Made by a program: the position numbers and the translations under genes
Part shown: positions 29,545 through 43,569 of the stretch, in pieces
Layout of the letters: every line of letters starts with the position of its first letter
How positions within the stretch are numbered: position 1 is the first letter of the stretch
Origin: an uncultured Flavobacterium sp.
Lineage (GTDB): Bacteria; Bacteroidota; Bacteroidia; Flavobacteriales; Flavobacteriaceae
Reading direction: 5' to 3'
Length of the DNA stretch: 64,000 bases
NCBI RefSeq assembly: GCF_963975515.1
Contig: NZ_CAXBGY010000012.1
Location: 12,467 to 76,466 of the forward strand
Notes under the pieces: generated by a model
What the model saw: only the letters and a program-made list of their open reading frames with translations
Database searches by the model: none
Told to the model about the DNA's origin: nothing

Positions 29545-32500
29545 ATGAGAAAAATTACCCTATCTCAAAAATTTGTTGCTATTCTAATTTTAACATTAGG
29601 AACAATTACGTCATCAGCACAAATTAAAAACCCTTTTGATGTTCGATTTCAAACAACTGTAAGAGGAGATTTAACCATGATCTCTAACAATATTGTTAAT
29701 AGAAGTCCAAACCCAAATACGGCCTATAATACAACTGGAGGTTCATCTATCTATAATGATGAAACTAATATGCAGTTTATTGATATTGATGGTTCAACTC
29801 AAACATTTAATTCGAGTAGTGCTAATTTGACAGTTCCAGATGCAACATGTTCAAAGATCGTTCATGCTGGATTGTATTGGTCAGCAACTTATAGATATAA
29901 TATAGGTAACGACCCTTCTAGTGGACGTGCAACAGATTGGAATCAAGTAAAATTTAGAGTACCTGGTGGTGCTTATGTAAATGTGATTGCTGATGAAGTT
30001 TTATATGATGGTTTTGCTGATCCTATTCAAACAAATGTTACGCATGGTCCTTATGGTTGTTTTGCAGATGTTACTGCCTTAGTGTCTGGATTAGCCAATC
30101 CAAATGGAACCTATTTCGTCGGAAATATTAGAGTTAGTACAAATGGTAATAGTAGCGGTTCATTTTCAATACAAGGTGGAGTAGCTGGTGGATGGACTTT
30201 AGTAATCGTATACGAAAACATTAATTTACCCGGTAAAAAAATTACAACTTTTGATGGATATGCTGTTGTGGCTTCAAATGCTGGAAATTTAGATATTCCT
30301 GTTTCTGGATTTTCGACATTGCCTGCTCCATTTCCAGTAAGAGCAAAACTTGGAATTTCTACTTTAGAAGGAGATAATAGAGTTATAGGTGATCAATTAA
30401 GAATTAAAGCAAATTCAATAGCTGGTTTTACAAACCTAACAAATACACCTTTACCTGCCGCAGCAGTAACAAATAATTATTTTAATTCTTCAATTACCTT
30501 AAATGGCGCCTTTTTTAATGCCAGAAATCCAAATAGTTTAAACACCCTAGGTTGGGATGCTCACTTAAATAGAGTTAATAATCCTGGAAATAGCGTAATC
30601 CCTAATAATGAGACTGGTGTAACCTTAAGGGCGGTTTCAAGTGGTGATAAATATGATGTGTTTTTTACTTCTTTTGATGTTGAAATTATTGAACCTCAAA
30701 TTCCTTTATTAAAACAAGTTGAAGATATATCTGGTAATAATGTAAACGGTCAAACCTTAACCTTAGGACAAGAAATTTTTTATACCTTAACTTTTCAGAA
30801 TACTGGAAATGATAATGCGCTGAATTTTACCCTTACTGATATATTGCCAACAAACGCAATATTTCCAGCAAATGGAACTATTCAGCCTGGAGATTTAATT
30901 TTACCACCGGGAGTTACTTATGTTTTTAACCCAACAACAAATCAATTTACATTTTCTATACCAAATAATTTAGTTGAAATAGGAGATCCAGCTTATACAA
31001 TAAAAATTAAGGTTAAGTTACCTTTAAATTGTGAAGATTTTAGAGATGCTTGTACTAATCAAATAATTAACCAAGCCTATGTTTCTTATAATGGAGAATT
31101 AAATACTCAAGTTATTACAGATAACCCTAGTTTCAATGGATATGACAATTGTAATTATCCAACTCCAGGAACAACAAATTTTATAGCAAATATTGATGAT
31201 TGTATTTTTACAAGAACAGAAATTTTATGTGGTAACACTTTAGAATTAACAGGAGCTGATGGTTACGACACTTATTTGTGGCAAGATTCATCGGGAAATA
31301 CAATTGGAAATACACAAACAATAACTGTAAATGCTACAGGAACCTATACTGTGTTTTTATCTATTCCACCACCTTGTGTTTCAATATATGAGACAGTAAA
31401 TGTTGTAGATTTTAACAATGCCATAAGTTCAAACCCAGCAATTCCTTATGCAAATGTTGTAGAAACATGTCCTAATGATGGTTCACAGTTACCAAAAATA
31501 TTTTTATGTGGGTTAAATGATAGTGTCTTAATTCAATCCGGAGTAAATAATGCTATTAGTATACAATGGCAACAACTAGTTCCTGGAAGTTGTGCTCCAG
31601 TTGGAATTAGTAACTGTGCCAATACTAATAATAGTTGTACATGGAATACGGTTGGAACAGGTCCAAATTTTAATGTAACAACAGCTGGTGAATATCAGGT
31701 TATTTTTAACTATCAAAATGGTTGTTTTAGAAAATTCTATTTTAATGTTTTTCAAAACACATTAAATCCTGATATAGTAACGTCAAATATTATTTGTACA
31801 ACACCTGGTTCAATTACAATAAACAATATTCCTTCTACTTACGAATTTAGTTTATCTCCTACTGGTCCGTTTTCATCAAACAATGTAATTCCGATAACTA
31901 CTGCAGGAAATTATACTGTATACATTCAACAAACAGGAGTAACAGGAGGATGTCTTTTTGAGTTTCCAAATATTAATATCTTAAATCAAATTTTAGATGT
32001 TGATGTGATTGTTACAGATAAACTTTGTAATGATGGTTTTGGAAGTATTAGGGTACAAACGAATGGAGTAGAACCACAATATTATTTTCAGATATCTCAA
32101 GGAGCAACAATAATATCAACATTTGGTCCTTCAACAGATAATGATCATTTATTTTCTAATTTAAATCCTGGAACTTATACCGTAACAGCAACAACAGACG
32201 ATGGTTGTACATATACTGAACAAGTTACTATACAAGATTTATCAGATTTAGCCGTAAGTGCAGCAGTAACACAAAATATTAGTTGTGTAAATGGTCAAGT
32301 AACTTTAACACCATCTGGTGGTTTAGCTCCATACAATTATGCTGTTTATAGTTACAATGGAGTTCCAGTAGTATCAGGAAACTATGCTTATCAAACCTAC
32401 GAAATATTTGAGTATAATATAACTCAAATTGGAACTTATCAATATATAATTGTTGATAGTAATAATTGTACTTCGTTATCAAATATAGTAACAGTAGCAG

Positions 32501-35500
32501 CTGAACCAACAGTAACAATTACCGAAACTCATACAAACGTAACATGTAATGGGTTGAATAATGGTACAGCTACTATTTCCGCTTTACCTACAAATGGATA
32601 TGCCATAACTTATAGTATTGATGGAGGAATTAATTATCAAAATTCAAATGTTTTTACTGGATTAGCTCCTGGAACTTATACAATTGATATAAAATACACT
32701 AAACCAACACACGAATGTGATTATACAATTAACGTTACAATTACACAACCTACTCCTATAACGGGTCAATCACAAGTAACCCAACAATTAACATGTGTAG
32801 CAACAGGAACTATTCAAGCCTTTAATGTAACTGGTGGAACAGCTCCTTATCAATACAGTATTAATGGTATCACTTTTCAAAATGGTGCTTCTTTTCCTAA
32901 TCTTTCTGCAGGAACTTACGTAATTACTATTAGAGATTTTAATAACTGTACTACAACTACAACTCCAATAACTTTAGTTCAACCTCTTGCTGCAACAGAT
33001 TTAACGTTTACAGCTTCAAGTGTAACTTGTCCTACTTTAACAAGTAATGTTACAGCAACTATTGTGGGTGGAACTGCTCCTTTTGTAGTTCAAATAACAG
33101 CTCCTTCAACTATTGCTGCAACTTCTATTGCTGGAAACGTTGCTACTTTTAATAACTTAGCGGTAGGTTCATATACATTCAATGTAACAGATGCTAATGG
33201 ATGTATGTATCAAGAAAACTTTACAATTAACCCAATTACTTTTATTAATGTTACTGGAAATTTAGTTTCTAATGTTATTTGTTTCGGTGCTTCTAATGGT
33301 GCTGTTTCTTATAATGTAACTGGTTTTAACACTACTTATTCTTATACCGTAAATAGTGGAACAGCTGTTACTAATCAAACTAGTAATACAATAAATTTAA
33401 ATAGTTTAGCTGCTGGTAATTATGCTATAACAGTTACTGATAACAGTACAAACTGTCAAAGTACTGTAAGTGTAACTGTAGCTCAACCTAGTTCTCCTTT
33501 AGCACTTAATGCAACTACAAACCCAATAACTTGTATTGCTAATGGAACTATAAATGCAGCTGCTTCAGGTGGTTGGGGTTCTTATTCTTATACTTTAACA
33601 CAACCTAATGCTGCAACTGTTGGTCCACAAAGTAGTGGTGTATTCACAAATCAAACACAAACAGGTACTTATACTATTTCGGTTACTGACGGAAATGGAT
33701 GTATAGTAACTAGTACGGCAACTTTAAGCCCTACTGTTAATCCAACACTAACTATAAGTCCTACTTCAACATTATGTTATAATGCAACAACGGGTTCAAC
33801 TGTTATATTAACAGCAGCTAGTGGTGTTGCTCCTTATCAATATAGTTCTGGTGGTGCATTTCAATCAAGTAATACTTTTGCTGGATTAACTCCTGGAAAT
33901 TATACGTTCACAGTTAGAGATAGTTATGGTTGTACGGCAACTGTTACGCAAACTATTACTCCTGCTTTATTAGCACAAACTACCATAACTAAAACATTAG
34001 ATTGTAGTGCTTCACCAAATGCTGTAATTACAGTAAATGTAAATGGTGGAACAACGCCATACCAATACCAAGTTAATTTTAATGGTGGTGGATTCGGTGC
34101 TTTAAATCCAATTGTAGGATCTTCTTTTACTTATTCAACAGCAATTGCAGGTACTTATCAATTCTTAATAACGGGTGCTACTGGTTGTACTTACACTACT
34201 AGTATTATCACTATCAATCCAATTACAAATCCAGATATTACTTCTATTACACCAACACAACAAAATTTATGTAATGGAGATACCAATGGTGCAATACAAG
34301 TAAATATTGACAACACTCAAGGAACTTCTCCTTTTCAATACAGTATCAATGGCGGAACAACTTATCAAAGTTCAAACATATTTACTGGACTTGCTGCCGG
34401 AACCTATACCGTAATTGTAAGAGACTCTAAACTTTGTACAGATACCGAAAGTATTACTCTTGTACAGCCAGCCATACTTGCAGGTCAATCACAAGTAACC
34501 CAACAATTAACATGTGTAGCAACAGGAACTATTCAAGCCTTTAATGTAACTGGTGGAACAGCTCCTTATCAATACAGTATTAATGGTATCACTTTTCAAA
34601 ATGGTGCTTCTTTTCCTAATCTTTCTGCAGGAACTTACGTAATTACTATTAGAGATTTTAATAACTGTACTACAACTACAACTCCAATAACTTTAGTTCA
34701 ACCTCTTGCTGCAACAGATTTAACGTTTACAGCTTCAAGTGTAACTTGTCCTACTTTAACAAGTAATGTTACAGCAACTATTGTGGGTGGAACTGCTCCT
34801 TTTGTAGTTCAAATAACAGCTCCTTCAACTATTGCTGCAACTTCTATTGCTGGAAACGTTGCTACTTTTAATAACTTAGCGGTAGGTTCATATACATTCA
34901 ATGTAACAGATGCTAATGGATGTATGTATCAAGAAAACTTTACAATTAACCCAATTACTTTTATTAATGTTACTGGAAATTTAGTTTCTAATGTTATTTG
35001 TTTCGGTGCTTCTAATGGTGCTGTTTCTTATAATGTAACTGGTTTTAACACTACTTATTCTTATACCGTAAATAGTGGAACAGCTGTTACTAATCAAACT
35101 AGTAATACAATAAATTTAAATAGTTTAGCTGCTGGTAATTATGCTATAACAGTTACTGATAACAGTACAAACTGTCAAAGTACTGTAAGTGTAACTGTAG
35201 CTCAACCTAGTTCTCCTTTAGCACTTAATGCAACTACAAACCCAATAACTTGTATTGCTAATGGAACTATAAATGCAGCTGCTTCAGGTGGTTGGGGTTC
35301 TTATTCTTATACTTTAACACAACCTAATGCTGCAACTGTTGGTCCACAAAGTAGTGGTGTATTCACAAATCAAACACAAACAGGTACTTATACTATTTCG
35401 GTTACTGACGGAAATGGATGTATAGTAACTAGTACGGCAACTTTAAGCCCTACTGTTAATCCAACACTAACTATAAGTCCTACTTCAACATTATGTTATA

Positions 35501-38500
35501 ATGCAACAACGGGTTCAACTGTTATATTAACAGCAGCTAGTGGTGTTGCTCCTTATCAATATAGTTCTGGTGGTGCATTTCAATCAAGTAATACTTTTGC
35601 TGGATTAACTCCTGGAAATTATACGTTCACAGTTAGAGATAGTTATGGTTGTACGGCAACTGTTACGCAAACTATTACTCCTGCTTTATTAGCACAAACT
35701 ACCATAACTAAAACATTAGATTGTAGTGCTTCACCAAATGCTGTAATTACAGTAAATGTAAATGGTGGAACAACGCCATACCAATACCAAGTTAATTTTA
35801 ATGGTGGTGGATTCGGTGCTTTAAATCCAATTGTAGGATCTTCTTTTACTTATTCAACAGCAATTGCAGGTACTTATCAATTCTTAATAACGGGTGCTAC
35901 TGGTTGTACTTACACTACTAGTATTATCACTATCAATCCAATTACAAATCCAGATATTACTTCTATTACACCAACACAACAAAATTTATGTAATGGAGAT
36001 ACCAATGGTGCAATACAAGTAAATATTGACAACACTCAAGGAACTTCTCCTTTTCAATACAGTATCAATGGCGGAACAACTTATCAAAGTTCAAACATAT
36101 TTACTGGACTTGCTGCCGGAACCTATACCGTAATTGTAAGAGACTCTAAACTTTGTACAGATACCGAAAGTATTACTCTTGTACAGCCAGACGCCATAAC
36201 CTTTGATATTTCAATAACAGAAATAACTTGTAATAATCCAGGTGGAACAAGTTATGGTGAAGTAATTTTTGAAAATATAACTGGAGGAACACAACCGTAT
36301 ACTTATTATTTGAGTAGTAATTTTGGCTATGCAGATAGTTATTCAACAACAACAAACGAAGATCATACATTTGTAATATTAAACTTTGGAATATATACTG
36401 CTGAGGTAATAGATTCAAATGGTTGTTCTATTGTAAAAAGTAATATTATTATTGCTTCACCACCAGATGACTTAGATATCGATATTTCTACAGCAACAGC
36501 TGATTGTATAAGTGGTGGAACTGCAATAATAACTGTTTCCTCTTTAGTAAGTAGTGGTTCTTATGAATTTGGAATACTAGAAACTAATACCTTACCTTAT
36601 ACAACATCTTGGCAATTAGCAGATGCTGGTACTCCAGAAACTTCAACTTTTACAGGTTTAACACCTGGAGTAACTTATACATTTGTAGTTCATGATTTAA
36701 TTACACTTTGTTATTATTTTGAAACAGCTAATGGTCCAATTCCAACTCCTTCTAATTTAACAACTGTAATAGATGTTGTTCAAAATGTAACTTGTACAGG
36801 AAGTGGAAATGGAAATATATCATTTACGTTTGACAATTATAATGCTCTAACTACATCTGTAGATTATGAAATATTCAATGCTCAATCAAATTTAACTACT
36901 GGATTGATAGGAAATAGCCTAACACCTGGTGGACCAATAAATGTTCTAAATTTTGGTATATTACCTCCAGGAACCTATTATATATTATTAACAGAAAACG
37001 GAACAGGAAGTGCAAATGGTTGTACTTCTGCAACTCCAAACTTTACAATTACTCAATCTACTAACCAATTAATTGGAACAGCTACTTTAGTTAAAAACGA
37101 TAACTGTAATTTAAATGCTGGAATTGTTACCGCGACTGGTCAGTTTGGAACAGCTCCATATCAATATCAAATTGTGTTAAGTACAGATCCTGCTCCAACG
37201 GTTGGAACTTGGACTGGAACCCCTACAAATACTTTCAATGTTGAAAATGGTTCTTATATTGTTTATGTAAAAGATGCTAATAACTGTATAGCAGCTAGTA
37301 ATATAGTTGTTGTTGGACTTGATCCTTCGCCAGAAATTACTTTAGCAATAGATGATGCCTGTGCAAACGAAGGAAGTTTTGTAATTAATGGTATCAGAAC
37401 TGTGGATGGAATTGCTCCTTATACTATAACAGTGGATGGAAATACTCCTTACACTGAAAATGCAGCCAACTTTACTATTTCAAACTTATTATCAGGTAGT
37501 CATACTGTAACTATTACCGATGCTAATGGTTGTACATATTCACAAACTATCCTTATAGATCAAATTATTAATGGAAATGCAATTGTTACTGTTCAACCTA
37601 GTTGTGCTAATAATGATGGTGAAATTCAAGCTACTGCAACTAACGGAAGTACAAATTATTCTTTTGAGTTACAAACAACAGCTGGTGTTAACGTAGCCGG
37701 TCCAAACACAACTGGTTTATTTACTGGATTAGGTTTTGGAAACTATAATGTAATTATTTCTGATGCTACTTTAGGATGTGATATTACTATTCCTTTATCT
37801 TTAGAACAACCTGCTCCTGTTTCATTCACTACAACACATGAAAATGTAAGCTGTAATGGAGCGACTGATGGAAGTATTTCTATTGCTTTAGACGCAACAA
37901 ATATTGATACTCCTTATACGTATTCATTATTTGATGGTACAACAACTGTAACTCAAAATAGTCCGATTTTTACAGGTTTAGCTGCTGGAAACTATACCGT
38001 AACCGTAACTTCTTCTAAAAACTGTACTGATTCTCAAATTATAAATGTTACCCAGCCAAATCCTTTAGCTTTAGCTCTAACAGGTGGCGATTTTGCTTGT
38101 AATAGTAATAACACAGTAAGTGTTGTTACAGTAACAGCAAACGTAGCTTTAGGAACAGGAACTGCTCCTTATTTGTATAGTATAGATGGTACAAATTATC
38201 AAACAACTAATACTTTTGATATAGTAGATAATGGAACTATTCAAAATATAACCATAACAGTTCAAGATTTTAATGGTTGTACAATTAATGAATCTATAAC
38301 TATTAACCCTTTACCAACTATTACTAATGTTGCTGTTACTCAGAATACAGCTTTAACGTGTGCAAATAATGAAGAAGTTTTAATAACTGTAACTGGTGGT
38401 TCAGGAAACTATACTTATCAATTGTTACCAAATGGAGCAATTGTTGGACCTACTTCAAGTAATACAGCTACCTTCTCTCTTACTACTGCAGGAACATATA

Positions 38501-41500
38501 CTTTTGAAATAATTGATACCGTAACAGGTTGTAGTACTATTACTGTTCCTTACACAATTAATCCTCTACCTGTTTTAACCGTTGTAGCTGATAATACTAA
38601 TGCTGTAAATTGTTATGGTGAAACTAATGGTTCTTTCGATATAACAGTTAGTGGTTATTCAGGAAACTATAACTACAATATTTATGATGAAACAAATACA
38701 ATTGTAGCTTCTGGAAGTAATAATACCACAACAAATCCTTTAACTTTAACTTTAACTAGTTTAGGAGCTGGAAATTATTCGGTTCAAATAATTGCTACAC
38801 AAACTCCTTTCTGTGAAACTATTTCCAATGTAATCACAATTGGATCACCTGTTGGTCCACTTGGTGTAAATGTAACAGCTACAAACGATAACTGTAATTT
38901 AAATGCTGGAATTGTTACCGCGACTGGTCAGTTTGGAACAGCTCCATATCAATATCAAATTGTGTTAAGTACAGATCCTGCTCCAACGGTTGGAACTTGG
39001 ACTGGAACCCCTACAAATACTTTCAATGTTGAAAATGGTTCTTATATTGTTTATGTAAAAGATGCTAATAACTGTATAGCAGCTAGTAATATAGTTGTTG
39101 TTGGACTTGATCCTTCGCCAGAAATTACTTTAGCAATAGATGATGCCTGTGCAAACGAAGGAAGTTTTGTAATTAATGGTATCAGAACTGTGGATGGAAT
39201 TGCTCCTTATACTATAACAGTGGATGGAAATACTCCTTACACTGAAAATGCAGCCAACTTTACTATTTCAAACTTATTATCAGGTAGTCATACTGTAACT
39301 ATTACCGATGCTAATGGTTGTACATATTCACAAACTATCCTTATAGATCAAATTATTAATGGAAATGCAATTGTTACTGTTCAACCTAGTTGTGCTAATA
39401 ATGATGGTGAAATTCAAGCTACTGCAACTAACGGAAGTACAAATTATTCTTTTGAGTTACAAACAACAGCTGGTGTTAACGTAGCCGGTCCAAACACAAC
39501 TGGTTTATTTACTGGATTAGGTTTTGGAAACTATAATGTAATTATTTCTGATGCTACTTTAGGATGTGATATTACTATTCCTTTATCTTTAGAACAACCT
39601 GCTCCTGTTTCATTCACTACAACACATGAAAATGTAAGCTGTAATGGAGCGACTGATGGAAGTATTTCTATTGCTTTAGACGCAACAAATATTGATACTC
39701 CTTATACGTATTCATTATTTGATGGTACAACAACTGTAACTCAAAATAGTCCGATTTTTACAGGTTTAGCTGCTGGAAACTATACCGTAACCGTAACTTC
39801 TTCTAAAAACTGTACTGATTCTCAAATTATAAATGTTACCCAGCCAAATCCTTTAGCTTTAGCTCTAACAGGTGGCGATTTTGCTTGTAATAGTAATAAC
39901 ACAGTAAGTGTTGTTACAGTAACAGCAAACGTAGCTTTAGGAACAGGAACTGCTCCTTATTTGTATAGTATAGATGGTACAAATTATCAAACAACTAATA
40001 CTTTTGATATAGTAGATAATGGAACTATTCAAAATATAACCATAACAGTTCAAGATTTTAATGGTTGTACAATTAATGAATCTATAACTATTAACCCTTT
40101 ACCAACTATTACTAATGTTGCTGTTACTCAGAATACAGCTTTAACGTGTGCAAATAATGAAGAAGTTTTAATAACTGTAACTGGTGGTTCAGGAAACTAT
40201 ACTTATCAATTGTTACCAAATGGAGCAATTGTTGGACCTACTTCAAGTAATACAGCTACCTTCTCTCTTACTACTGCAGGAACATATACTTTTGAAATAA
40301 TTGATACCGTAACAGGTTGTAGTACTATTACTGTTCCTTACACAATTAATCCTCTACCTGTTTTAACCGTTGTAGCTGATAATACTAATGCTGTAAATTG
40401 TTATGGTGAAACTAATGGTTCTTTCGATATAACAGTTAGTGGTTATTCAGGAAACTATAACTACAATATTTATGATGAAACAAATACAATTGTAGCTTCT
40501 GGAAGTAATAATACCACAACAAATCCTTTAACTTTAACGGGTCTTGGTGCTGGAAACTATTCTGTACAAATAATTGCTACACAAACTCCTTTCTGTGAAA
40601 CTATTTCCAATGTAATTAATATATATTCTCCGCCAAACCCATTAACATTGGTTGTTCAACAAACTTCTGATGTGACTTGTAATATTCCTGGTTTAGGAAC
40701 AATAACTGCACAAGCAAATGGTGGAAACGGAACATATGAATATCAATTAGTAAATACAACTACTAGTACAACTATACAAGCATTTGGAGCCAATAATACA
40801 TTTACTGGTTTAGATGCAGGTACTTATGAAGTTACAGTTAGAGATATTAATTTATGTGAAGTTTCTCAGACTATAATCCTTATTGCACCAACAGCAATTA
40901 ATGCTACTTATGTTGTTACAAATGCTAATTTATTATGTTATAATAATACAAATGCAAGTGTTACAATAACAGCAACAGGAGGTCAAGGAAGTTACCAATA
41001 CACATTGACTGAATCTGATGGTGATATTTATGGACCTCAGATTGAAAATGTGTTTAGTGGTTTAGGCGCAGGCACTTATACTATAAGTATTAATGATGGA
41101 TGGAATTGTGATTTTACTGCATTGCCATTTACAATTACACAACCAACAAAAATTGAGGCGACTTTAAGTGTTCAAAGTACATTAACTTGTGATAACGATG
41201 CTGAATTAATCATTAATGCATCAGGTGGAACACCACCTTATATGTATAGTGCAGATGGAATAACCTTTAATTCAACAAATACATTCTTTGTTGGTCCTGG
41301 AACATATCAATATTATGTTACTGATGCAAACGGTTGTACTGCAACACAGACAAATGAAGTGACAATTTCTCCAATCCCATCATTAACTGTAACTATTAAT
41401 GCTTCAAATACTGCTATTCAATGTAACGGAGATATGAATGCTTCTATTACTGTAAATGCAACGGGCGGATTAGGAAATTATAATTATACTTTATTAAATA

Positions 41501-43569
41501 GTACTACAATGGCAATTATCACTGGTCCACAAACTAGTAATGTTTTTAGTCCATTAGGTGCTGGATCATATATTGTAAGTGTTAATAGTGTTGATTGTGA
41601 TCAAAACTCAAATACGGTTATTATTACACAACCTTTAAACCCACTTAACATTACTAATTTTACAGTAATACCTGCAACTTGTAATGGAACAGCAAATGGA
41701 AGTATAACATTTAACCCAACTGGAGGAACACCTCCTTATCAATATGCAATTACAAATCATTTAGATCAATTTTTTGATACAAATACTTTTATTGGTTTAG
41801 GTGTGGGTACATATTCAGTAGTTGTTCAAGATACTAACGGTTGTTTTGAAACAATCAATGTTCAAATGACAGAACCTGCTCCTTTAGTCGCGTCTTCTGT
41901 TAATACGTTTGAAGTATGTGAAGGAAGTAATAATGGAACTGCAACTTTAACCATAACTGGTGGAACTGCTCCTTATTATACAAGTTTAGATGATGATACA
42001 CCAACTAGTTTTGTACAAGGGCAATTAATTTTTAATAACTTAGATAGCACGGTTGATCATACTATATTTGTGCATGATGCTAATGACTGTCAGACAACAG
42101 TTTATATTCCTGTTGGAAATCCTATTACATTGACACCAACTGCTACTGTAACTTATGCTTGTACAACTACGACTACCTTACAAAACAATACAGTAACAGT
42201 TAATGTTGAAGCTTCTAATGTTGGTCAAGTTCAGTATTCATTAGATAATCAAACAAATTATCAAACAAACAATGTCTATACTAATTTAAATAATGGTACA
42301 CATACTATTTATGTAATGCATACAAATGGTTGTGTTAAAACAGTAACAGTAAACATTACAAACTGGAGTCCAGTTACTGAAACTCATACTCAAGTTAATG
42401 TATTATGTAATAGTGCAACAACTGGTAGTATAACAGTGAATGGAAATGGTGGAAACGGAACATATCAATATGCAATTTCTCCAGCATTTACTTACGGAAC
42501 GGCAAATACATTCAACAATTTAACTGTTGGAACATATACTGTAAAAGTAAAAGATGGTAATAACTGTGAAATTGAAACACAACTAATAACAATAACTCAA
42601 CCAACAGTATTAAATGCAATTGTATCTGATTTTGAACAAGATGTTTGTCAAGGAGATAATGCAGGATATATACAAGTAACTGCTAGTGGTGGAGTTGGTC
42701 CTTATATGGCAAGTTTTAATAACACAACTAATTATCAAGCAGTAAATGCTTCTAATATTGTAGACTATTTTGGTTTAGCTGGTGGAGCAACATATACTAT
42801 TTATATAAAAGATGTTAATGGTTGTGTCACTTCTGTTCAACAAACTTTAGATCCAGCAGTTGATTTAGATCCAAACGCTGTTGTAGTTTATGATTGTTTA
42901 GATAACCAATCAACAAATACTGTAACAATTTCAGTCGATGCAATCTATCAAAACGATGTTGTTTATTCGATTGATGGAGTTAATTTCCAATTAAGTAACA
43001 CGTTTACAAATGTTGCTGCTGGTAACTACACTGCATATGTTGAACATTCTAACGGTTGTTTTAACAGTAATGAAACTTTTACAGTTGATCAAATTGATGC
43101 GGTTAGTTTAATTGTAACTGAAACAGGATTAAATGAAATAACAGCAGTTGCTTCTGGTGGTGTTCCTCCTTATTCGTATGTGTTTAATGGAACAAACACA
43201 GGATCAAACAATGTATTTATCTTTAATCAAACAGGAAATCAATATGTATCTGCTTATGATGCAAATGGTTGTGAAGCTAATTTTACAATTCCAACAACAT
43301 TCTACCCTATAGAAATTCCAAACTTCTTTACACCTGATGGAAATGGATTTAACGATTATTGGTCACCTAAAAATGTAGATAACTATACTAATATTGAAAG
43401 TTTAATTTTCGATAGATACGGTAGAGAAATCATACGATTAAAATTAGGAGAATCTTGGAACGGAACTTATGACTCTATTGATTTACCATCTGGTGATTAC
43501 TGGTATTTGGTAAATGTAAATGACGGAACAGGAAGAACATTCACGGGTAACTTCACTCTTTATAGATAA
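29545..43569 (+). CDS. sprB: Giant gliding-motility surface adhesin (4674 aa), T9SS type B cargo
   Basis: Signal peptide, N-terminal domain, DUF11-like segment (GQEIFYTLTFQNTG), dozens of SprB repeats (C...G.I....GG..PY.Y) and type B CTD IPNFFTPDGNGFNDYW...FTGNFTLYR; followed by a PorP/SprF gene. Confidence 0.9.
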   Translation: MRKITLSQKFVAILILTLGTITSSAQIKNPFDVRFQTTVRGDLTMISNNIVNRSPNPNTAYNTTGGSSIYNDETNMQFIDIDGSTQTFNSSSANLTVPDATCSKIVHAGLYWSATYRYNIGNDPSSGRATDWNQVKFRVPGGAYVNVIADEVLYDGFADPIQTNVTHGPYGCFADVTALVSGLANPNGTYFVGNIRVSTNGNSSGSFSIQGGVAGGWTLVIVYENINLPGKKITTFDGYAVVASNAGNLDIPVSGFSTLPAPFPVRAKLGISTLEGDNRVIGDQLRIKANSIAGFTNLTNTPLPAAAVTNNYFNSSITLNGAFFNARNPNSLNTLGWDAHLNRVNNPGNSVIPNNETGVTLRAVSSGDKYDVFFTSFDVEIIEPQIPLLKQVEDISGNNVNGQTLTLGQEIFYTLTFQNTGNDNALNFTLTDILPTNAIFPANGTIQPGDLILPPGVTYVFNPTTNQFTFSIPNNLVEIGDPAYTIKIKVKLPLNCEDFRDACTNQIINQAYVSYNGELNTQVITDNPSFNGYDNCNYPTPGTTNFIANIDDCIFTRTEILCGNTLELTGADGYDTYLWQDSSGNTIGNTQTITVNATGTYTVFLSIPPPCVSIYETVNVVDFNNAISSNPAIPYANVVETCPNDGSQLPKIFLCGLNDSVLIQSGVNNAISIQWQQLVPGSCAPVGISNCANTNNSCTWNTVGTGPNFNVTTAGEYQVIFNYQNGCFRKFYFNVFQNTLNPDIVTSNIICTTPGSITINNIPSTYEFSLSPTGPFSSNNVIPITTAGNYTVYIQQTGVTGGCLFEFPNINILNQILDVDVIVTDKLCNDGFGSIRVQTNGVEPQYYFQISQGATIISTFGPSTDNDHLFSNLNPGTYTVTATTDDGCTYTEQVTIQDLSDLAVSAAVTQNISCVNGQVTLTPSGGLAPYNYAVYSYNGVPVVSGNYAYQTYEIFEYNITQIGTYQYIIVDSNNCTSLSNIVTVAAEPTVTITETHTNVTCNGLNNGTATISALPTNGYAITYSIDGGINYQNSNVFTGLAPGTYTIDIKYTKPTHECDYTINVTITQPTPITGQSQVTQQLTCVATGTIQAFNVTGGTAPYQYSINGITFQNGASFPNLSAGTYVITIRDFNNCTTTTTPITLVQPLAATDLTFTASSVTCPTLTSNVTATIVGGTAPFVVQITAPSTIAATSIAGNVATFNNLAVGSYTFNVTDANGCMYQENFTINPITFINVTGNLVSNVICFGASNGAVSYNVTGFNTTYSYTVNSGTAVTNQTSNTINLNSLAAGNYAITVTDNSTNCQSTVSVTVAQPSSPLALNATTNPITCIANGTINAAASGGWGSYSYTLTQPNAATVGPQSSGVFTNQTQTGTYTISVTDGNGCIVTSTATLSPTVNPTLTISPTSTLCYNATTGSTVILTAASGVAPYQYSSGGAFQSSNTFAGLTPGNYTFTVRDSYGCTATVTQTITPALLAQTTITKTLDCSASPNAVITVNVNGGTTPYQYQVNFNGGGFGALNPIVGSSFTYSTAIAGTYQFLITGATGCTYTTSIITINPITNPDITSITPTQQNLCNGDTNGAIQVNIDNTQGTSPFQYSINGGTTYQSSNIFTGLAAGTYTVIVRDSKLCTDTESITLVQPAILAGQSQVTQQLTCVATGTIQAFNVTGGTAPYQYSINGITFQNGASFPNLSAGTYVITIRDFNNCTTTTTPITLVQPLAATDLTFTASSVTCPTLTSNVTATIVGGTAPFVVQITAPSTIAATSIAGNVATFNNLAVGSYTFNVTDANGCMYQENFTINPITFINVTGNLVSNVICFGASNGAVSYNVTGFNTTYSYTVNSGTAVTNQTSNTINLNSLAAGNYAITVTDNSTNCQSTVSVTVAQPSSPLALNATTNPITCIANGTINAAASGGWGSYSYTLTQPNAATVGPQSSGVFTNQTQTGTYTISVTDGNGCIVTSTATLSPTVNPTLTISPTSTLCYNATTGSTVILTAASGVAPYQYSSGGAFQSSNTFAGLTPGNYTFTVRDSYGCTATVTQTITPALLAQTTITKTLDCSASPNAVITVNVNGGTTPYQYQVNFNGGGFGALNPIVGSSFTYSTAIAGTYQFLITGATGCTYTTSIITINPITNPDITSITPTQQNLCNGDTNGAIQVNIDNTQGTSPFQYSINGGTTYQSSNIFTGLAAGTYTVIVRDSKLCTDTESITLVQPDAITFDISITEITCNNPGGTSYGEVIFENITGGTQPYTYYLSSNFGYADSYSTTTNEDHTFVILNFGIYTAEVIDSNGCSIVKSNIIIASPPDDLDIDISTATADCISGGTAIITVSSLVSSGSYEFGILETNTLPYTTSWQLADAGTPETSTFTGLTPGVTYTFVVHDLITLCYYFETANGPIPTPSNLTTVIDVVQNVTCTGSGNGNISFTFDNYNALTTSVDYEIFNAQSNLTTGLIGNSLTPGGPINVLNFGILPPGTYYILLTENGTGSANGCTSATPNFTITQSTNQLIGTATLVKNDNCNLNAGIVTATGQFGTAPYQYQIVLSTDPAPTVGTWTGTPTNTFNVENGSYIVYVKDANNCIAASNIVVVGLDPSPEITLAIDDACANEGSFVINGIRTVDGIAPYTITVDGNTPYTENAANFTISNLLSGSHTVTITDANGCTYSQTILIDQIINGNAIVTVQPSCANNDGEIQATATNGSTNYSFELQTTAGVNVAGPNTTGLFTGLGFGNYNVIISDATLGCDITIPLSLEQPAPVSFTTTHENVSCNGATDGSISIALDATNIDTPYTYSLFDGTTTVTQNSPIFTGLAAGNYTVTVTSSKNCTDSQIINVTQPNPLALALTGGDFACNSNNTVSVVTVTANVALGTGTAPYLYSIDGTNYQTTNTFDIVDNGTIQNITITVQDFNGCTINESITINPLPTITNVAVTQNTALTCANNEEVLITVTGGSGNYTYQLLPNGAIVGPTSSNTATFSLTTAGTYTFEIIDTVTGCSTITVPYTINPLPVLTVVADNTNAVNCYGETNGSFDITVSGYSGNYNYNIYDETNTIVASGSNNTTTNPLTLTLTSLGAGNYSVQIIATQTPFCETISNVITIGSPVGPLGVNVTATNDNCNLNAGIVTATGQFGTAPYQYQIVLSTDPAPTVGTWTGTPTNTFNVENGSYIVYVKDANNCIAASNIVVVGLDPSPEITLAIDDACANEGSFVINGIRTVDGIAPYTITVDGNTPYTENAANFTISNLLSGSHTVTITDANGCTYSQTILIDQIINGNAIVTVQPSCANNDGEIQATATNGSTNYSFELQTTAGVNVAGPNTTGLFTGLGFGNYNVIISDATLGCDITIPLSLEQPAPVSFTTTHENVSCNGATDGSISIALDATNIDTPYTYSLFDGTTTVTQNSPIFTGLAAGNYTVTVTSSKNCTDSQIINVTQPNPLALALTGGDFACNSNNTVSVVTVTANVALGTGTAPYLYSIDGTNYQTTNTFDIVDNGTIQNITITVQDFNGCTINESITINPLPTITNVAVTQNTALTCANNEEVLITVTGGSGNYTYQLLPNGAIVGPTSSNTATFSLTTAGTYTFEIIDTVTGCSTITVPYTINPLPVLTVVADNTNAVNCYGETNGSFDITVSGYSGNYNYNIYDETNTIVASGSNNTTTNPLTLTGLGAGNYSVQIIATQTPFCETISNVINIYSPPNPLTLVVQQTSDVTCNIPGLGTITAQANGGNGTYEYQLVNTTTSTTIQAFGANNTFTGLDAGTYEVTVRDINLCEVSQTIILIAPTAINATYVVTNANLLCYNNTNASVTITATGGQGSYQYTLTESDGDIYGPQIENVFSGLGAGTYTISINDGWNCDFTALPFTITQPTKIEATLSVQSTLTCDNDAELIINASGGTPPYMYSADGITFNSTNTFFVGPGTYQYYVTDANGCTATQTNEVTISPIPSLTVTINASNTAIQCNGDMNASITVNATGGLGNYNYTLLNSTTMAIITGPQTSNVFSPLGAGSYIVSVNSVDCDQNSNTVIITQPLNPLNITNFTVIPATCNGTANGSITFNPTGGTPPYQYAITNHLDQFFDTNTFIGLGVGTYSVVVQDTNGCFETINVQMTEPAPLVASSVNTFEVCEGSNNGTATLTITGGTAPYYTSLDDDTPTSFVQGQLIFNNLDSTVDHTIFVHDANDCQTTVYIPVGNPITLTPTATVTYACTTTTTLQNNTVTVNVEASNVGQVQYSLDNQTNYQTNNVYTNLNNGTHTIYVMHTNGCVKTVTVNITNWSPVTETHTQVNVLCNSATTGSITVNGNGGNGTYQYAISPAFTYGTANTFNNLTVGTYTVKVKDGNNCEIETQLITITQPTVLNAIVSDFEQDVCQGDNAGYIQVTASGGVGPYMASFNNTTNYQAVNASNIVDYFGLAGGATYTIYIKDVNGCVTSVQQTLDPAVDLDPNAVVVYDCLDNQSTNTVTISVDAIYQNDVVYSIDGVNFQLSNTFTNVAAGNYTAYVEHSNGCFNSNETFTVDQIDAVSLIVTETGLNEITAVASGGVPPYSYVFNGTNTGSNNVFIFNQTGNQYVSAYDANGCEANFTIPTTFYPIEIPNFFTPDGNGFNDYWSPKNVDNYTNIESLIFDRYGREIIRLKLGESWNGTYDSIDLPSGDYWYLVNVNDGTGRTFTGNFTLYR
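32764..36190. repeat. Tandem duplication A inside sprB: 32764-34471 and 34483-36190
   Basis: Two 1708-nt copies, offset 1719 nt (573 codons); no mismatch found in a line-by-line comparison. Confidence 0.97.
37095..40538. repeat. Tandem duplication B inside sprB: 37095-38750 and 38883-40538
   Basis: Two 1656-nt copies, offset 1788 nt (596 codons), no mismatch found; an extra identical 50-nt patch at 38785-38834 and 40567-40616. Confidence 0.97.

Follow-up and report, generated by a model that had tools for sequence, protein, structure and literature searches.

Within the window, by which we mean the whole 64,000-nt stretch of DNA analyzed, lies a gene of a marine Flavobacterium that encodes a giant surface adhesin with a repeated cassette in its stalk (Table 1). 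The protein has a head of ~750 aa and 45 HMM-defined Ig-like modules with two cysteines each, and its C-terminal sorting domain is of T9SS type B (TIGR04131 at aa 4589-4674; 80.7 bits, cut-off 35). Pfam SprB (PF13573) matches it in 25 stretches (E = 2e-132) and CHU_C matches it too, while the head belongs to a large family of its own, with 2773 matches. Neighboring stalk modules share only 20-45% of their amino acids. A two-module model, whose mean pLDDT of only 66.7 lets it inform on fold class alone, shows an all-beta fold that looks like tandem Ig/FN3 domains, for example those of SiiE and OSCAR. The order of genes around the adhesin is identical at all orthologous loci, and the product of the downstream PorP/SprF-family gene is likely the cognate outer-membrane partner of the adhesin.

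SprB-type filaments drive gliding and adhesion in Bacteroidota. To our knowledge, almost nothing has been described of how their huge stalks are built, and a literature search for cassette repeats, gene conversion or super-repeats in SprB found no paper. SprB itself is the mobile gliding-motility adhesin of Flavobacterium johnsoniae, encoded in the sprCDBF operon (PMC9870892, PMC12635249). The adhesin described here is likened to the F. johnsoniae protein (6497 aa) by domains and layout: both have SprB repeats, a type-B C-terminal domain and a PorP/SprF-family gene directly downstream in a comparable operon, and the gene described here is the only one with SprB repeats in its genome. In contrast to the F. 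johnsoniae locus, the upstream genes here encode an Ig/CHU_C protein and a PorP-SPOR protein.

Table 1. Features of the adhesin locus, in window coordinates
Feature	Position	Strand	Remarks
Ig-domain protein with T9SS CHU_C domain, 729 aa	25961..28150	+	upstream of adhesin
PorP/SprF-family protein with SPOR domain, 462 aa	28153..29541	+	upstream of adhesin
SprB-repeat T9SS type-B adhesin gene, 4674 aa	29545..43569	+	ORF
Block 1, modules 5-11 and 12-18	32764..36190	+	period 1719 nt, 1708 identical nt
Paired site between L024 and the window, block 1	34404/36123	+	same pattern as block 2 sites
Central modules 19-21, between the blocks	36202..37077	+	atypically long: 92, 96, 104 aa
Block 2 copy a, modules 22-28	37095..38834	+	self-match, module map
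Paired sites between L024 and the window, block 2	38596/40384, 38634/40422, 38646/40434	+	partners at +1788
TTAACT x3 slip site, copy a	38740..38757	+	copy b has two units only
Diverged patch, apparently unconverted, copy a	38751..38784	+	partner 40539-40566 in copy b
50-nt identical tract past the patch	38785..38834 (= 40567-40616)	+	exact match, offset 1782 nt
Junction linker M between the copies	38835..38882	+	48 nt, contains ITIGSPVGPLGVNVTAT
Block 2 copy b, modules 29-35	38883..40616	+	self-match, module map
PorP/SprF-family protein, 317 aa	43576..44529	+	TIGR03519, 202 bits

Two duplicated blocks and the mosaic edge of block 2

Tandem Repeats Finder, which covers periods up to 500 nt, found no repeats in that range; longer periods were found with an offset scan written in Python. 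In block 2, an exact self-match at an offset of 1788 nt joins 37095-38750 to 38883-40538 (1656 nt). Its period of 596 codons is exactly seven two-cysteine modules, as the first-pass annotation had claimed, and the positions of the first cysteines agree (2521...3023 in copy a, 3117...3619 in copy b). Block 1, whose first copy spans 32764-34471, likewise repeats seven modules (5-11 vs 12-18). Each of the four close genomes has it with perfect identity over a tract about as long as its period, and in none of the four does it show a mosaic; for this block alone, loss and later re-duplication is conceivable. The two blocks had been taken to be unrelated, which proved incorrect: both are windows, circularly permuted, on a single ancient lattice of seven modules.

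The long match in block 2 ends at a slip site, at which copy b reads TTAACTTTAACG and copy a carries a 6-nt insertion that adds two residues, Thr-Leu. This extra pair is confined to copy a and is absent from all seven orthologous or paralogous sequences compared. In the patch that follows, the copies differ at 8 of 28 aligned nt, and seven of these differences are at synonymous sites. Six of them fall between TTAGGAGCTGGAAATTATTCGGTT (38761-38784) and CTTGGTGCTGGAAACTATTCTGTA (40543-40566) and are synonymous throughout; just before, ACT AGT in copy a against ACG GGT in copy b accounts for one synonymous and one Ser/Gly change. The patch of copy b is the version found in the single-copy orthologues P0003, P0006 and P0011, and that of copy a is the odd one out. 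Thus, the slip with its two extra residues, the ~30-nt stretch encoding nearly the same peptide in different codons, and the 50 identical nt beyond it are all as first described. The earlier view that the patch is hard to blame on an assembler also stands, since each version is tied to different unique flanks and that of copy b matches single-copy orthologues. We read the 50-nt tract as the probable product of conversion that was separate or discontinuous.

The linker between the copies is old. In M, the left half is related to the right flank (R) of the duplication and the right half to the left one (L), but M is diverged from both and equals neither. The identical tract, at 1740 nt, also falls short of the 1788-nt period. 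As a recent simple duplication would give an exact R/L hybrid, M is not a recent hybrid. Moreover, M is orthologous in our sequence, P0007 and P0008, with synonymous divergence at the level seen between species, and partly so in P0004. At both the junction and the patch, divergence of ~25-50% directly abuts perfect identity.

Copies in relatives and the limits set by assembly

Most of the assemblies compared were made from short metagenome reads, among them at least two of the two-copy assemblies and the scaffold used for comparison, L024; in short-read assemblies a collapsed repeat gets written twice. L024 is a second assembly of the same population, and it differs from the window at 8 sites in 17,025 nt, all in repeats and always in both copies (Table 1). 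At these paired sites the real copies probably differ, each assembler having collapsed the difference, and the 1656 identical nt are an upper bound and the two copies a lower bound. The claimed 1656-nt identity is therefore exact in the window's assembly but probably inflated by short-read repeat collapse: identity of the interior is partly imposed by assembly, and the copy number is a minimum. In genes of this kind, short-read genomes and MAGs will show too few copies and too few differences between copies, and a perfect internal repeat seen there should be taken for biology only once long reads bear it out.

The strain comparison was done through protein clusters and their contigs; a DNA search of 40 species-representative relatives returned nothing above ~72% identity. 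Copies within a genome are 100% identical, compared to 73-75% DNA identity when a given module is aligned between species. The pairs 22/29 and 23/30 of P0007 and P0008 reach only 70-73% identity in DNA beside modules 24-26 at 100%, and modules 27/34 of P0007 are 71% identical. The copies are thus mosaics, and a-type and b-type copies form separate trans-species clades (support 93/99). The exact tracts measure 1656+50 nt in our sequence, 113+84+46+1463+53 in P0004, 1299 in P0008 and 713+125 in P0007, and in this exact-match comparison their end points differ from lineage to lineage. Both duplications are also present in the distant homologues P0012, P0013, P0016 and P0017, with copies 42-58% identical in amino acids. 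The proposal that an older duplication is being homogenized in patches is supported by the shared linker, the diverged copy pairs of P0007 and P0008 next to perfect ones, and the lineage-specific tracts. We also note that the 70-73% identity of those copy pairs is as low as that between species (~74%).

The length of the adhesin varies as well. In a tree of the head domain, short and long forms are sisters (our sequence and P0011; P0004 and P0005), and repeat number differs between such sisters (P0004, 4675 aa; P0005, 3486 aa). Short (~3510 aa) and long (~4672 aa) forms each recur in several independent assemblies. Assembly collapse could underlie some of the short forms, for example P0011, which has a coverage of 3.8x. 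We rejected collapse as the source of all ~3510-aa forms, which recur on unbranched contigs in many samples, and simple collapse is ruled out for P0003 by a b-type module 23 that adjoins an L-type linker.

The seven-module period and the history of the stalk

With position-based profiles built from single-copy proteins only, the best partner of a module lay at a multiple of seven for 13 of 29 modules (3.3 expected; P=0.0003). A profile comparison placed 14 of 31 best partners at multiples of seven, a count reached in none of 20,000 permutations. Identity matrices of modules from single sequences were too noisy: period 7 reached P<0.01 for just 2 of the 12 proteins. In a complete genome of the same genus, duplications of seven modules have periods of 1788 and 1734 nt. 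The first-pass annotation had suggested a structural super-repeat in the stalk; this is supported in part, as an evolutionary periodicity. Unit sizes in diverse homologues are not arbitrary, with 50 of 63 segmental-duplication runs at offsets of 7, 14 or 21 modules, although three-module duplication units also occur.

We consider it likely that block 2 is an ancient tandem cassette of seven modules (22-28/29-35) that is homogenized by intragenic recombination, which also adds and deletes cassettes. The cassette would have arisen by unequal crossing-over between inter-module linkers, leaving M as the hybrid junction linker. Gene conversion of the non-reciprocal kind, perhaps combined with cycles of unequal crossing-over, would then have repeatedly overwritten one copy, and such overwriting would explain why the cassette interior is near-identical while the junction and edges keep old divergence. 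The mosaic right edge would mark where conversion tracts stop: the patch may be a remnant of the old paralogue that later gained the TTAACT slippage insertion, the 50-nt tract may stem from a separate or patchy event, and upstream of the patch there are probably a few more differences, collapsed by the assembler. We infer that the same recombination removes and adds whole cassettes, giving the short and long forms of close relatives. Seven would be an inherited period: if the whole stalk descends from a seven-module unit, the nearest recombination-competent homologue of any module would lie seven modules off.

A simple tandem duplication that took place recently and in this lineage alone, with an odd edge made by later point mutation and slippage, would account for an interior that is 100% identical over 1656 nt, and the TTAACT slip is plausible as a recent event. 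We nevertheless regard it as highly improbable, given the diverged junction and patch that abut perfect identity, a junction common to species 26% diverged in DNA, and the old diverged copy pairs in P0007 and P0008. We give equally little credence to an assembly artefact, in which strain variants of one real cassette in a metagenome were threaded as a tandem repeat. The source does look metagenome-assembled, a locus identical to that of the window is found on a Tara metagenome scaffold, and repeats collapse in such assemblies. However, in M the end of module 28 is joined to where module 22 begins, which allelic variation cannot produce; the same architecture occurs in at least five independent assemblies from different sources, some with copies differing over hundreds of nt; and the complete genome of the same genus carries duplications of this kind.

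Alternatively, each lineage may have duplicated its modules anew and repeatedly at shared hot-spot boundaries, through residual homology seven modules apart and with no long-term retention of two copies. Modules 4 and 11 have a common GQSxxxQxLTC tail at the edge of block 1, this block is perfectly identical over about one period in all four close genomes, and short forms interleave with long forms on the tree. For block 2, in contrast, M is orthologous across lineages and the a-type and b-type paralogues are trans-specific, and distant relatives have diverged copies of both blocks, which together make recurrent duplication a rather unlikely account.

An ancient cassette kept alike by conversion has parallels in the concerted evolution of tandem paralogues in the CEACAM family (PMC7042247) and the FLO adhesins (PMC3512402). 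As in those families, paralogues are closer than orthologues, mosaic tracts, going by exact matches, have lineage-specific ends, and edges escape homogenization; here, in contrast, multi-domain cassettes would exchange sequence within a single bacterial open reading frame, and the frame must hold. The titin A-band has super-repeats of 7 and 11 Ig/FN3 domains (PMC10665226). As in titin, domain i is closest to i+7 over several periods and growth was by duplication of a multi-domain unit; the titin period fits a structural partner, the thick filament, so the resemblance here is an analogy only.

The adhesin also resembles Periscope Proteins, bacterial surface stalks of variable length such as SasG, Aap, Rib, Sgo_0707 and SiiE-type BIg arrays (PMC8201768, PMC9704523), which we compared using the definition in PMC9704523. 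Shared features are a single-chain, surface-anchored adhesin with a head and a tandem Ig-like stalk (the fold here coming from a model of moderate confidence), repeats that short reads cannot resolve, and a length that varies among close relatives, here as judged from assemblies, with homologous recombination as the proposed cause. Near-identity of the repeats in DNA is matched in part only: the cassettes are up to 100% identical over 1.6-1.7 kb, a figure partly imposed by assembly, and adjacent modules are far less alike. Unlike in Periscope Proteins, the recombining unit is not one domain but seven different modules (~580-596 aa), adjacent modules are 20-45% identical, two separate cassettes surround a central three-module piece, and export and anchoring are predicted to use a T9SS type-B C-terminal domain and PorP/SprF rather than a sortase or autotransporter. 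Identical adjacent domains are thought to risk misfolding (PMC9704523). A building plan of a seven-module super-repeat with two cassette arrays of changing copy number would let stalk length shift in ~580-aa steps while adjacent domains remain dissimilar. The seven-domain repeat thus suggests, at the level of sequence, how such filaments change length, and we predict that natural short and long alleles yield filaments differing in length.

We also considered that the seven-module period is structural, as a higher-order repeat of the rod or a register with a partner, with insertions and deletions only in seven-module steps and the arrays flanking modules 19-21 selected to grow and shrink together. 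If true, the family would provide T9SS surface filaments with a natural length ruler that can be adjusted genetically, but we think this unlikely. The two arrays are balanced (N1=N2) by anchor counts in 116 nearest homologues, and the remaining 2 were set as balanced by inspecting weak anchors. As a general rule, N1=N2 was rejected: arm sizes correlate at r=0.5 among 40 diverse representatives with a recognizable center, and a fold-back hairpin reading is weak because arm balance fails in diverse homologues. Clear exceptions are P0138 (~2:3), P0149 (~2:1) and G050 (~8.1 vs 6.5 units).

Cassette copies and their junction in the adhesin gene

All of the duplicated sequence lies within a single open reading frame (29545-43569, plus strand; 4674 aa), which is flanked on either side by PorP/SprF-family genes and is the only SprB-repeat gene in this genome (3.19 Mb, 22 contigs). 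Pfam finds 25 SprB repeats in the protein, which ends in a type-B T9SS sorting domain (CHU_C/TIGR04131). Based on cysteine spacing and a module HMM, the stalk consists of 45 two-cysteine modules of 76-104 aa each; an AlphaFold model of two modules, of moderate confidence (pLDDT 66.7), is all-beta, like tandem Ig/FN3 domains (SiiE, OSCAR).

We recovered every element listed in the first-pass annotation (the identical tracts, slip, diverged patch and period) at its reported position, and the module map likewise bore out seven modules in each of two duplications: modules 5-11 and 12-18 in block 1 (offset 1719 nt, 1708 identical nt), and modules 22-28 (copy a) and 29-35 (copy b) in block 2 (period 596 codons). 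Just ahead of the diverged patch there are one synonymous and one Ser/Gly change. We also note that three unusually long modules (92, 96 and 104 aa), 19-21 at 36202-37077, separate the two cassette arrays; they are highly conserved throughout the family and provide the best positional anchor.

Block 2 features in the window and phase classes of the stalk modules
Feature	Position or extent	Strand	Description
Identical tract	37095-38750	+	1656 identical nt, offset 1788
TTAACT x3	38740-38757	+	copy b has x2
Diverged patch	24 nt	+	after the TTAACT slip; six differences, all synonymous
Second identical tract	50 nt	+	past the patch; offset 1782
Linker M	38835-38882	+	48 nt, between the block 2 copies
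Phase classes 1-4	modules		{1,8,22,36,43}, {2,9,23,37,44}, {3,10,24,38,45}, {4,11,25,39}
Phase classes 5-7	modules		{5,19,26,40}, {6,20,27,41}, {7,21,28,42}

After a clean, recent tandem duplication, the stretch of identity should equal or exceed the period. The block 2 identical tract (1740 nt) is shorter than the period (1788 nt), and linker M matches neither the left (L) nor the right (R) flank. It is related to R in its left half (ITIGSPVGPLGV vs INIYSPPNPLTL) and to L in its right half (TAT---NDN vs TATLVKNDN), with divergence in both. This pattern fits the remnant of an old unequal crossover between linkers; such an event, long ago, would have left M as a hybrid junction. Moreover, M is orthologous in the window's adhesin and in the long forms P0007, P0008 and, partly, P0004 from other lineages, with synonymous divergence in DNA at the ordinary between-species level. 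The sequence comparisons thus give good support to block 2 as an old duplication undergoing homogenization.

Probable homogenization across lineages and the limits of assembled identity

P0004, P0007 and P0008 (head identity 78-81%) carry both duplications in the same places. Across these lineages and that of the window, cassette modules show 73-75% DNA identity, while inside each of these genomes most module pairs are 100% identical. Some pairs are mosaic: pairs 22/29 and 23/30 are just 70-73% identical in P0007 and P0008, as is pair 27/34 in P0007 (71%). In trees, copies a of P0007 and P0008 group with the single-copy ortholog P0006, and their copies b form a separate clade (93/99 support for both). 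Exact tracts are lineage-specific (1656+50 nt in the window, 113+84+46+1463+53 nt in P0004, 713+125 nt in P0007 and 1299 nt in P0008), and their right-hand boundaries fall at different codons in different lineages. The patch in copy b is the version found in the single-copy orthologs; the comparison identifies that in copy a, which alone carries the two-residue slip, as a remnant of the other paralog. Among distant relatives, P0012, P0013, P0016 and P0017 have both duplications with copies 42-58% identical in amino acids, and P0018 and the P0065 group have three copies. The proposal that an older duplication is being homogenized in patches by gene conversion is well supported by these comparative data: the shared M, the mosaic pairs, the trans-species paralogs and the lineage-specific tracts. 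Gene conversion is well known to drive concerted evolution (e.g., PMC7042247).

The extent of identity requires more caution. We compared the window with a 594-kb Tara Oceans scaffold (L024), a second assembly of its population, and found identity across 17,025 nt except at eight positions, every one inside the repeats and paired across copies (34404/36123, 38596/40384, 38634/40422 and 38646/40434). Similarly, two JGI assemblies of the P0004 population show seven paired differences and none elsewhere. By our own estimate, chance would rarely (P about 0.002) give the distribution seen for the window, with no differences in ~13.6 kb of unique sequence vs four in ~3.4 kb of unit sequence. Rapid, true co-conversion may produce such pairs, as may strain variation, but the most economical explanation is true differences between the copies at these positions, with each short-read assembly collapsing the repeat, retaining a single branch and writing it out twice. 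In block 2, all three sites fall within 51 nt, 105-155 nt left of the patch, and would thus make one graph bubble. Given their position, the mosaic edge of the real copies probably begins at or before 38596. The paired differences suggest that inter-copy differences were collapsed and that the genome of the window was assembled from a metagenome. Thus, the 1656 identical nt hold for the assembly, but are an upper bound on the true identity of the copies, and the count of two copies reflects the assembler's minimal traversal.

Seven-module periodicity

With recent copies merged into 31 module types, the best profile partner lay at a multiple-of-seven offset for 14 of 31 modules (3.6 expected; none of 20,000 permutations reached 14). 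For a control, we rebuilt position-based profiles with 40 single-copy proteins as the sole input; 13 of 29 modules then had such a partner (P = 0.0003), and no other period showed enrichment. By the phase classes (see table), block 2 is exactly one unit of an ancient seven-module lattice, which block 1 (5-11) follows from phase 5. Thus, the two blocks, initially called unrelated, are distant, circularly permuted relatives.

Duplication units in homologs do not have arbitrary module counts. Among the 120 nearest homologs, segmental duplications have only two periods, seven modules (both blocks) and three (a C-terminal array of types 41-43). A diverse set of 90 representatives, clustered at <=50% identity, yields 63 duplication runs; 50 have offsets of 7, 14 or 21, most others have 3 or 6, and one is a single-module array. 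The suggested super-repeat is thus supported as an evolutionary periodicity in sequence; since all seven-module events occur on one inherited lattice, they are not independent votes for a structural period. We favor a reading in which unequal recombination and conversion act in seven-module register because any module's nearest DNA homolog sits seven modules away.

Complete genomes of the genus contain related arrays. In G008 (one contig, C1), an 8251-aa homolog (ORF from about 2990416; L026-L028) has at least 85 modules and one seven-module duplication per arm (~94% identical; periods 1788 and 1734 nt). In G050 (C1:5195001-5255000, minus strand; L029-L031), a frameshifted homologous giant gene, split into eight ORFs of 613-3697 aa, has ~8.1 copies of a 1717-1719-nt cassette followed directly by ~6.5 copies of a 1798-1802-nt cassette; the break reflects either a pseudogene or long-read indel errors.

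Conceptually, this adhesin comes closest to the Periscope Proteins (PMC8201768; PMC9704523), from which it differs mainly in recombining by seven-domain cassettes. The seven- and eleven-domain super-repeats of titin (PMC10665226) offer an analogy only. Our literature search turned up no paper on SprB-type adhesins that describes cassette repeats, conversion or a super-repeat. A cassette might have the side benefit of changing length without making identical domains neighbors (cf. PMC9704523).

We also observed a period of three in modules 40-45 (window ~41680-43140), in which 40, 41 and 42 resemble 43, 44 and 45, respectively. The P0019-P0059 group (3744-4226 aa) carries 2-5 copies of this three-module unit through amplification, accounting for the ~240-aa steps in length among these homologs. 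A classic single-module tandem array (7-8 modules, 77-84% identity) occurs in the distant P0216 (4020 aa), the sole case in the 90 representatives.

Length forms and copy-number balance

Head-domain homologs come in two size forms, of about 3510 and about 4672 aa, and removal of one copy of each block from the window's protein gives the shorter (4674-573-596 = 3505). The forms interleave on the head-domain tree (the window's adhesin with P0011, P0004 with P0005, P0007 and P0008 with P0006 and P0009), requiring at least eight state changes, and both recur among independent assemblies. Because junction M is shared, the long form is probably ancestral in this clade; short forms would then be deletions through recombination between near-identical cassettes.

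In each of the nearest homologs (P0003-P0121), block 1 has as many copies as block 2 (together at 32764-40616 in the window; 1:1, n = 46; 2:2, n = 67; 3:3, n = 5), with two proteins assigned by inspection of weak anchors, and the joint state changes at least eight times on the head-domain tree. This equality could reflect selective pressure on overall length or a constraint imposed by the architecture around modules 19-21. The rule is looser in more diverse relatives (r = 0.5), with clear exceptions.
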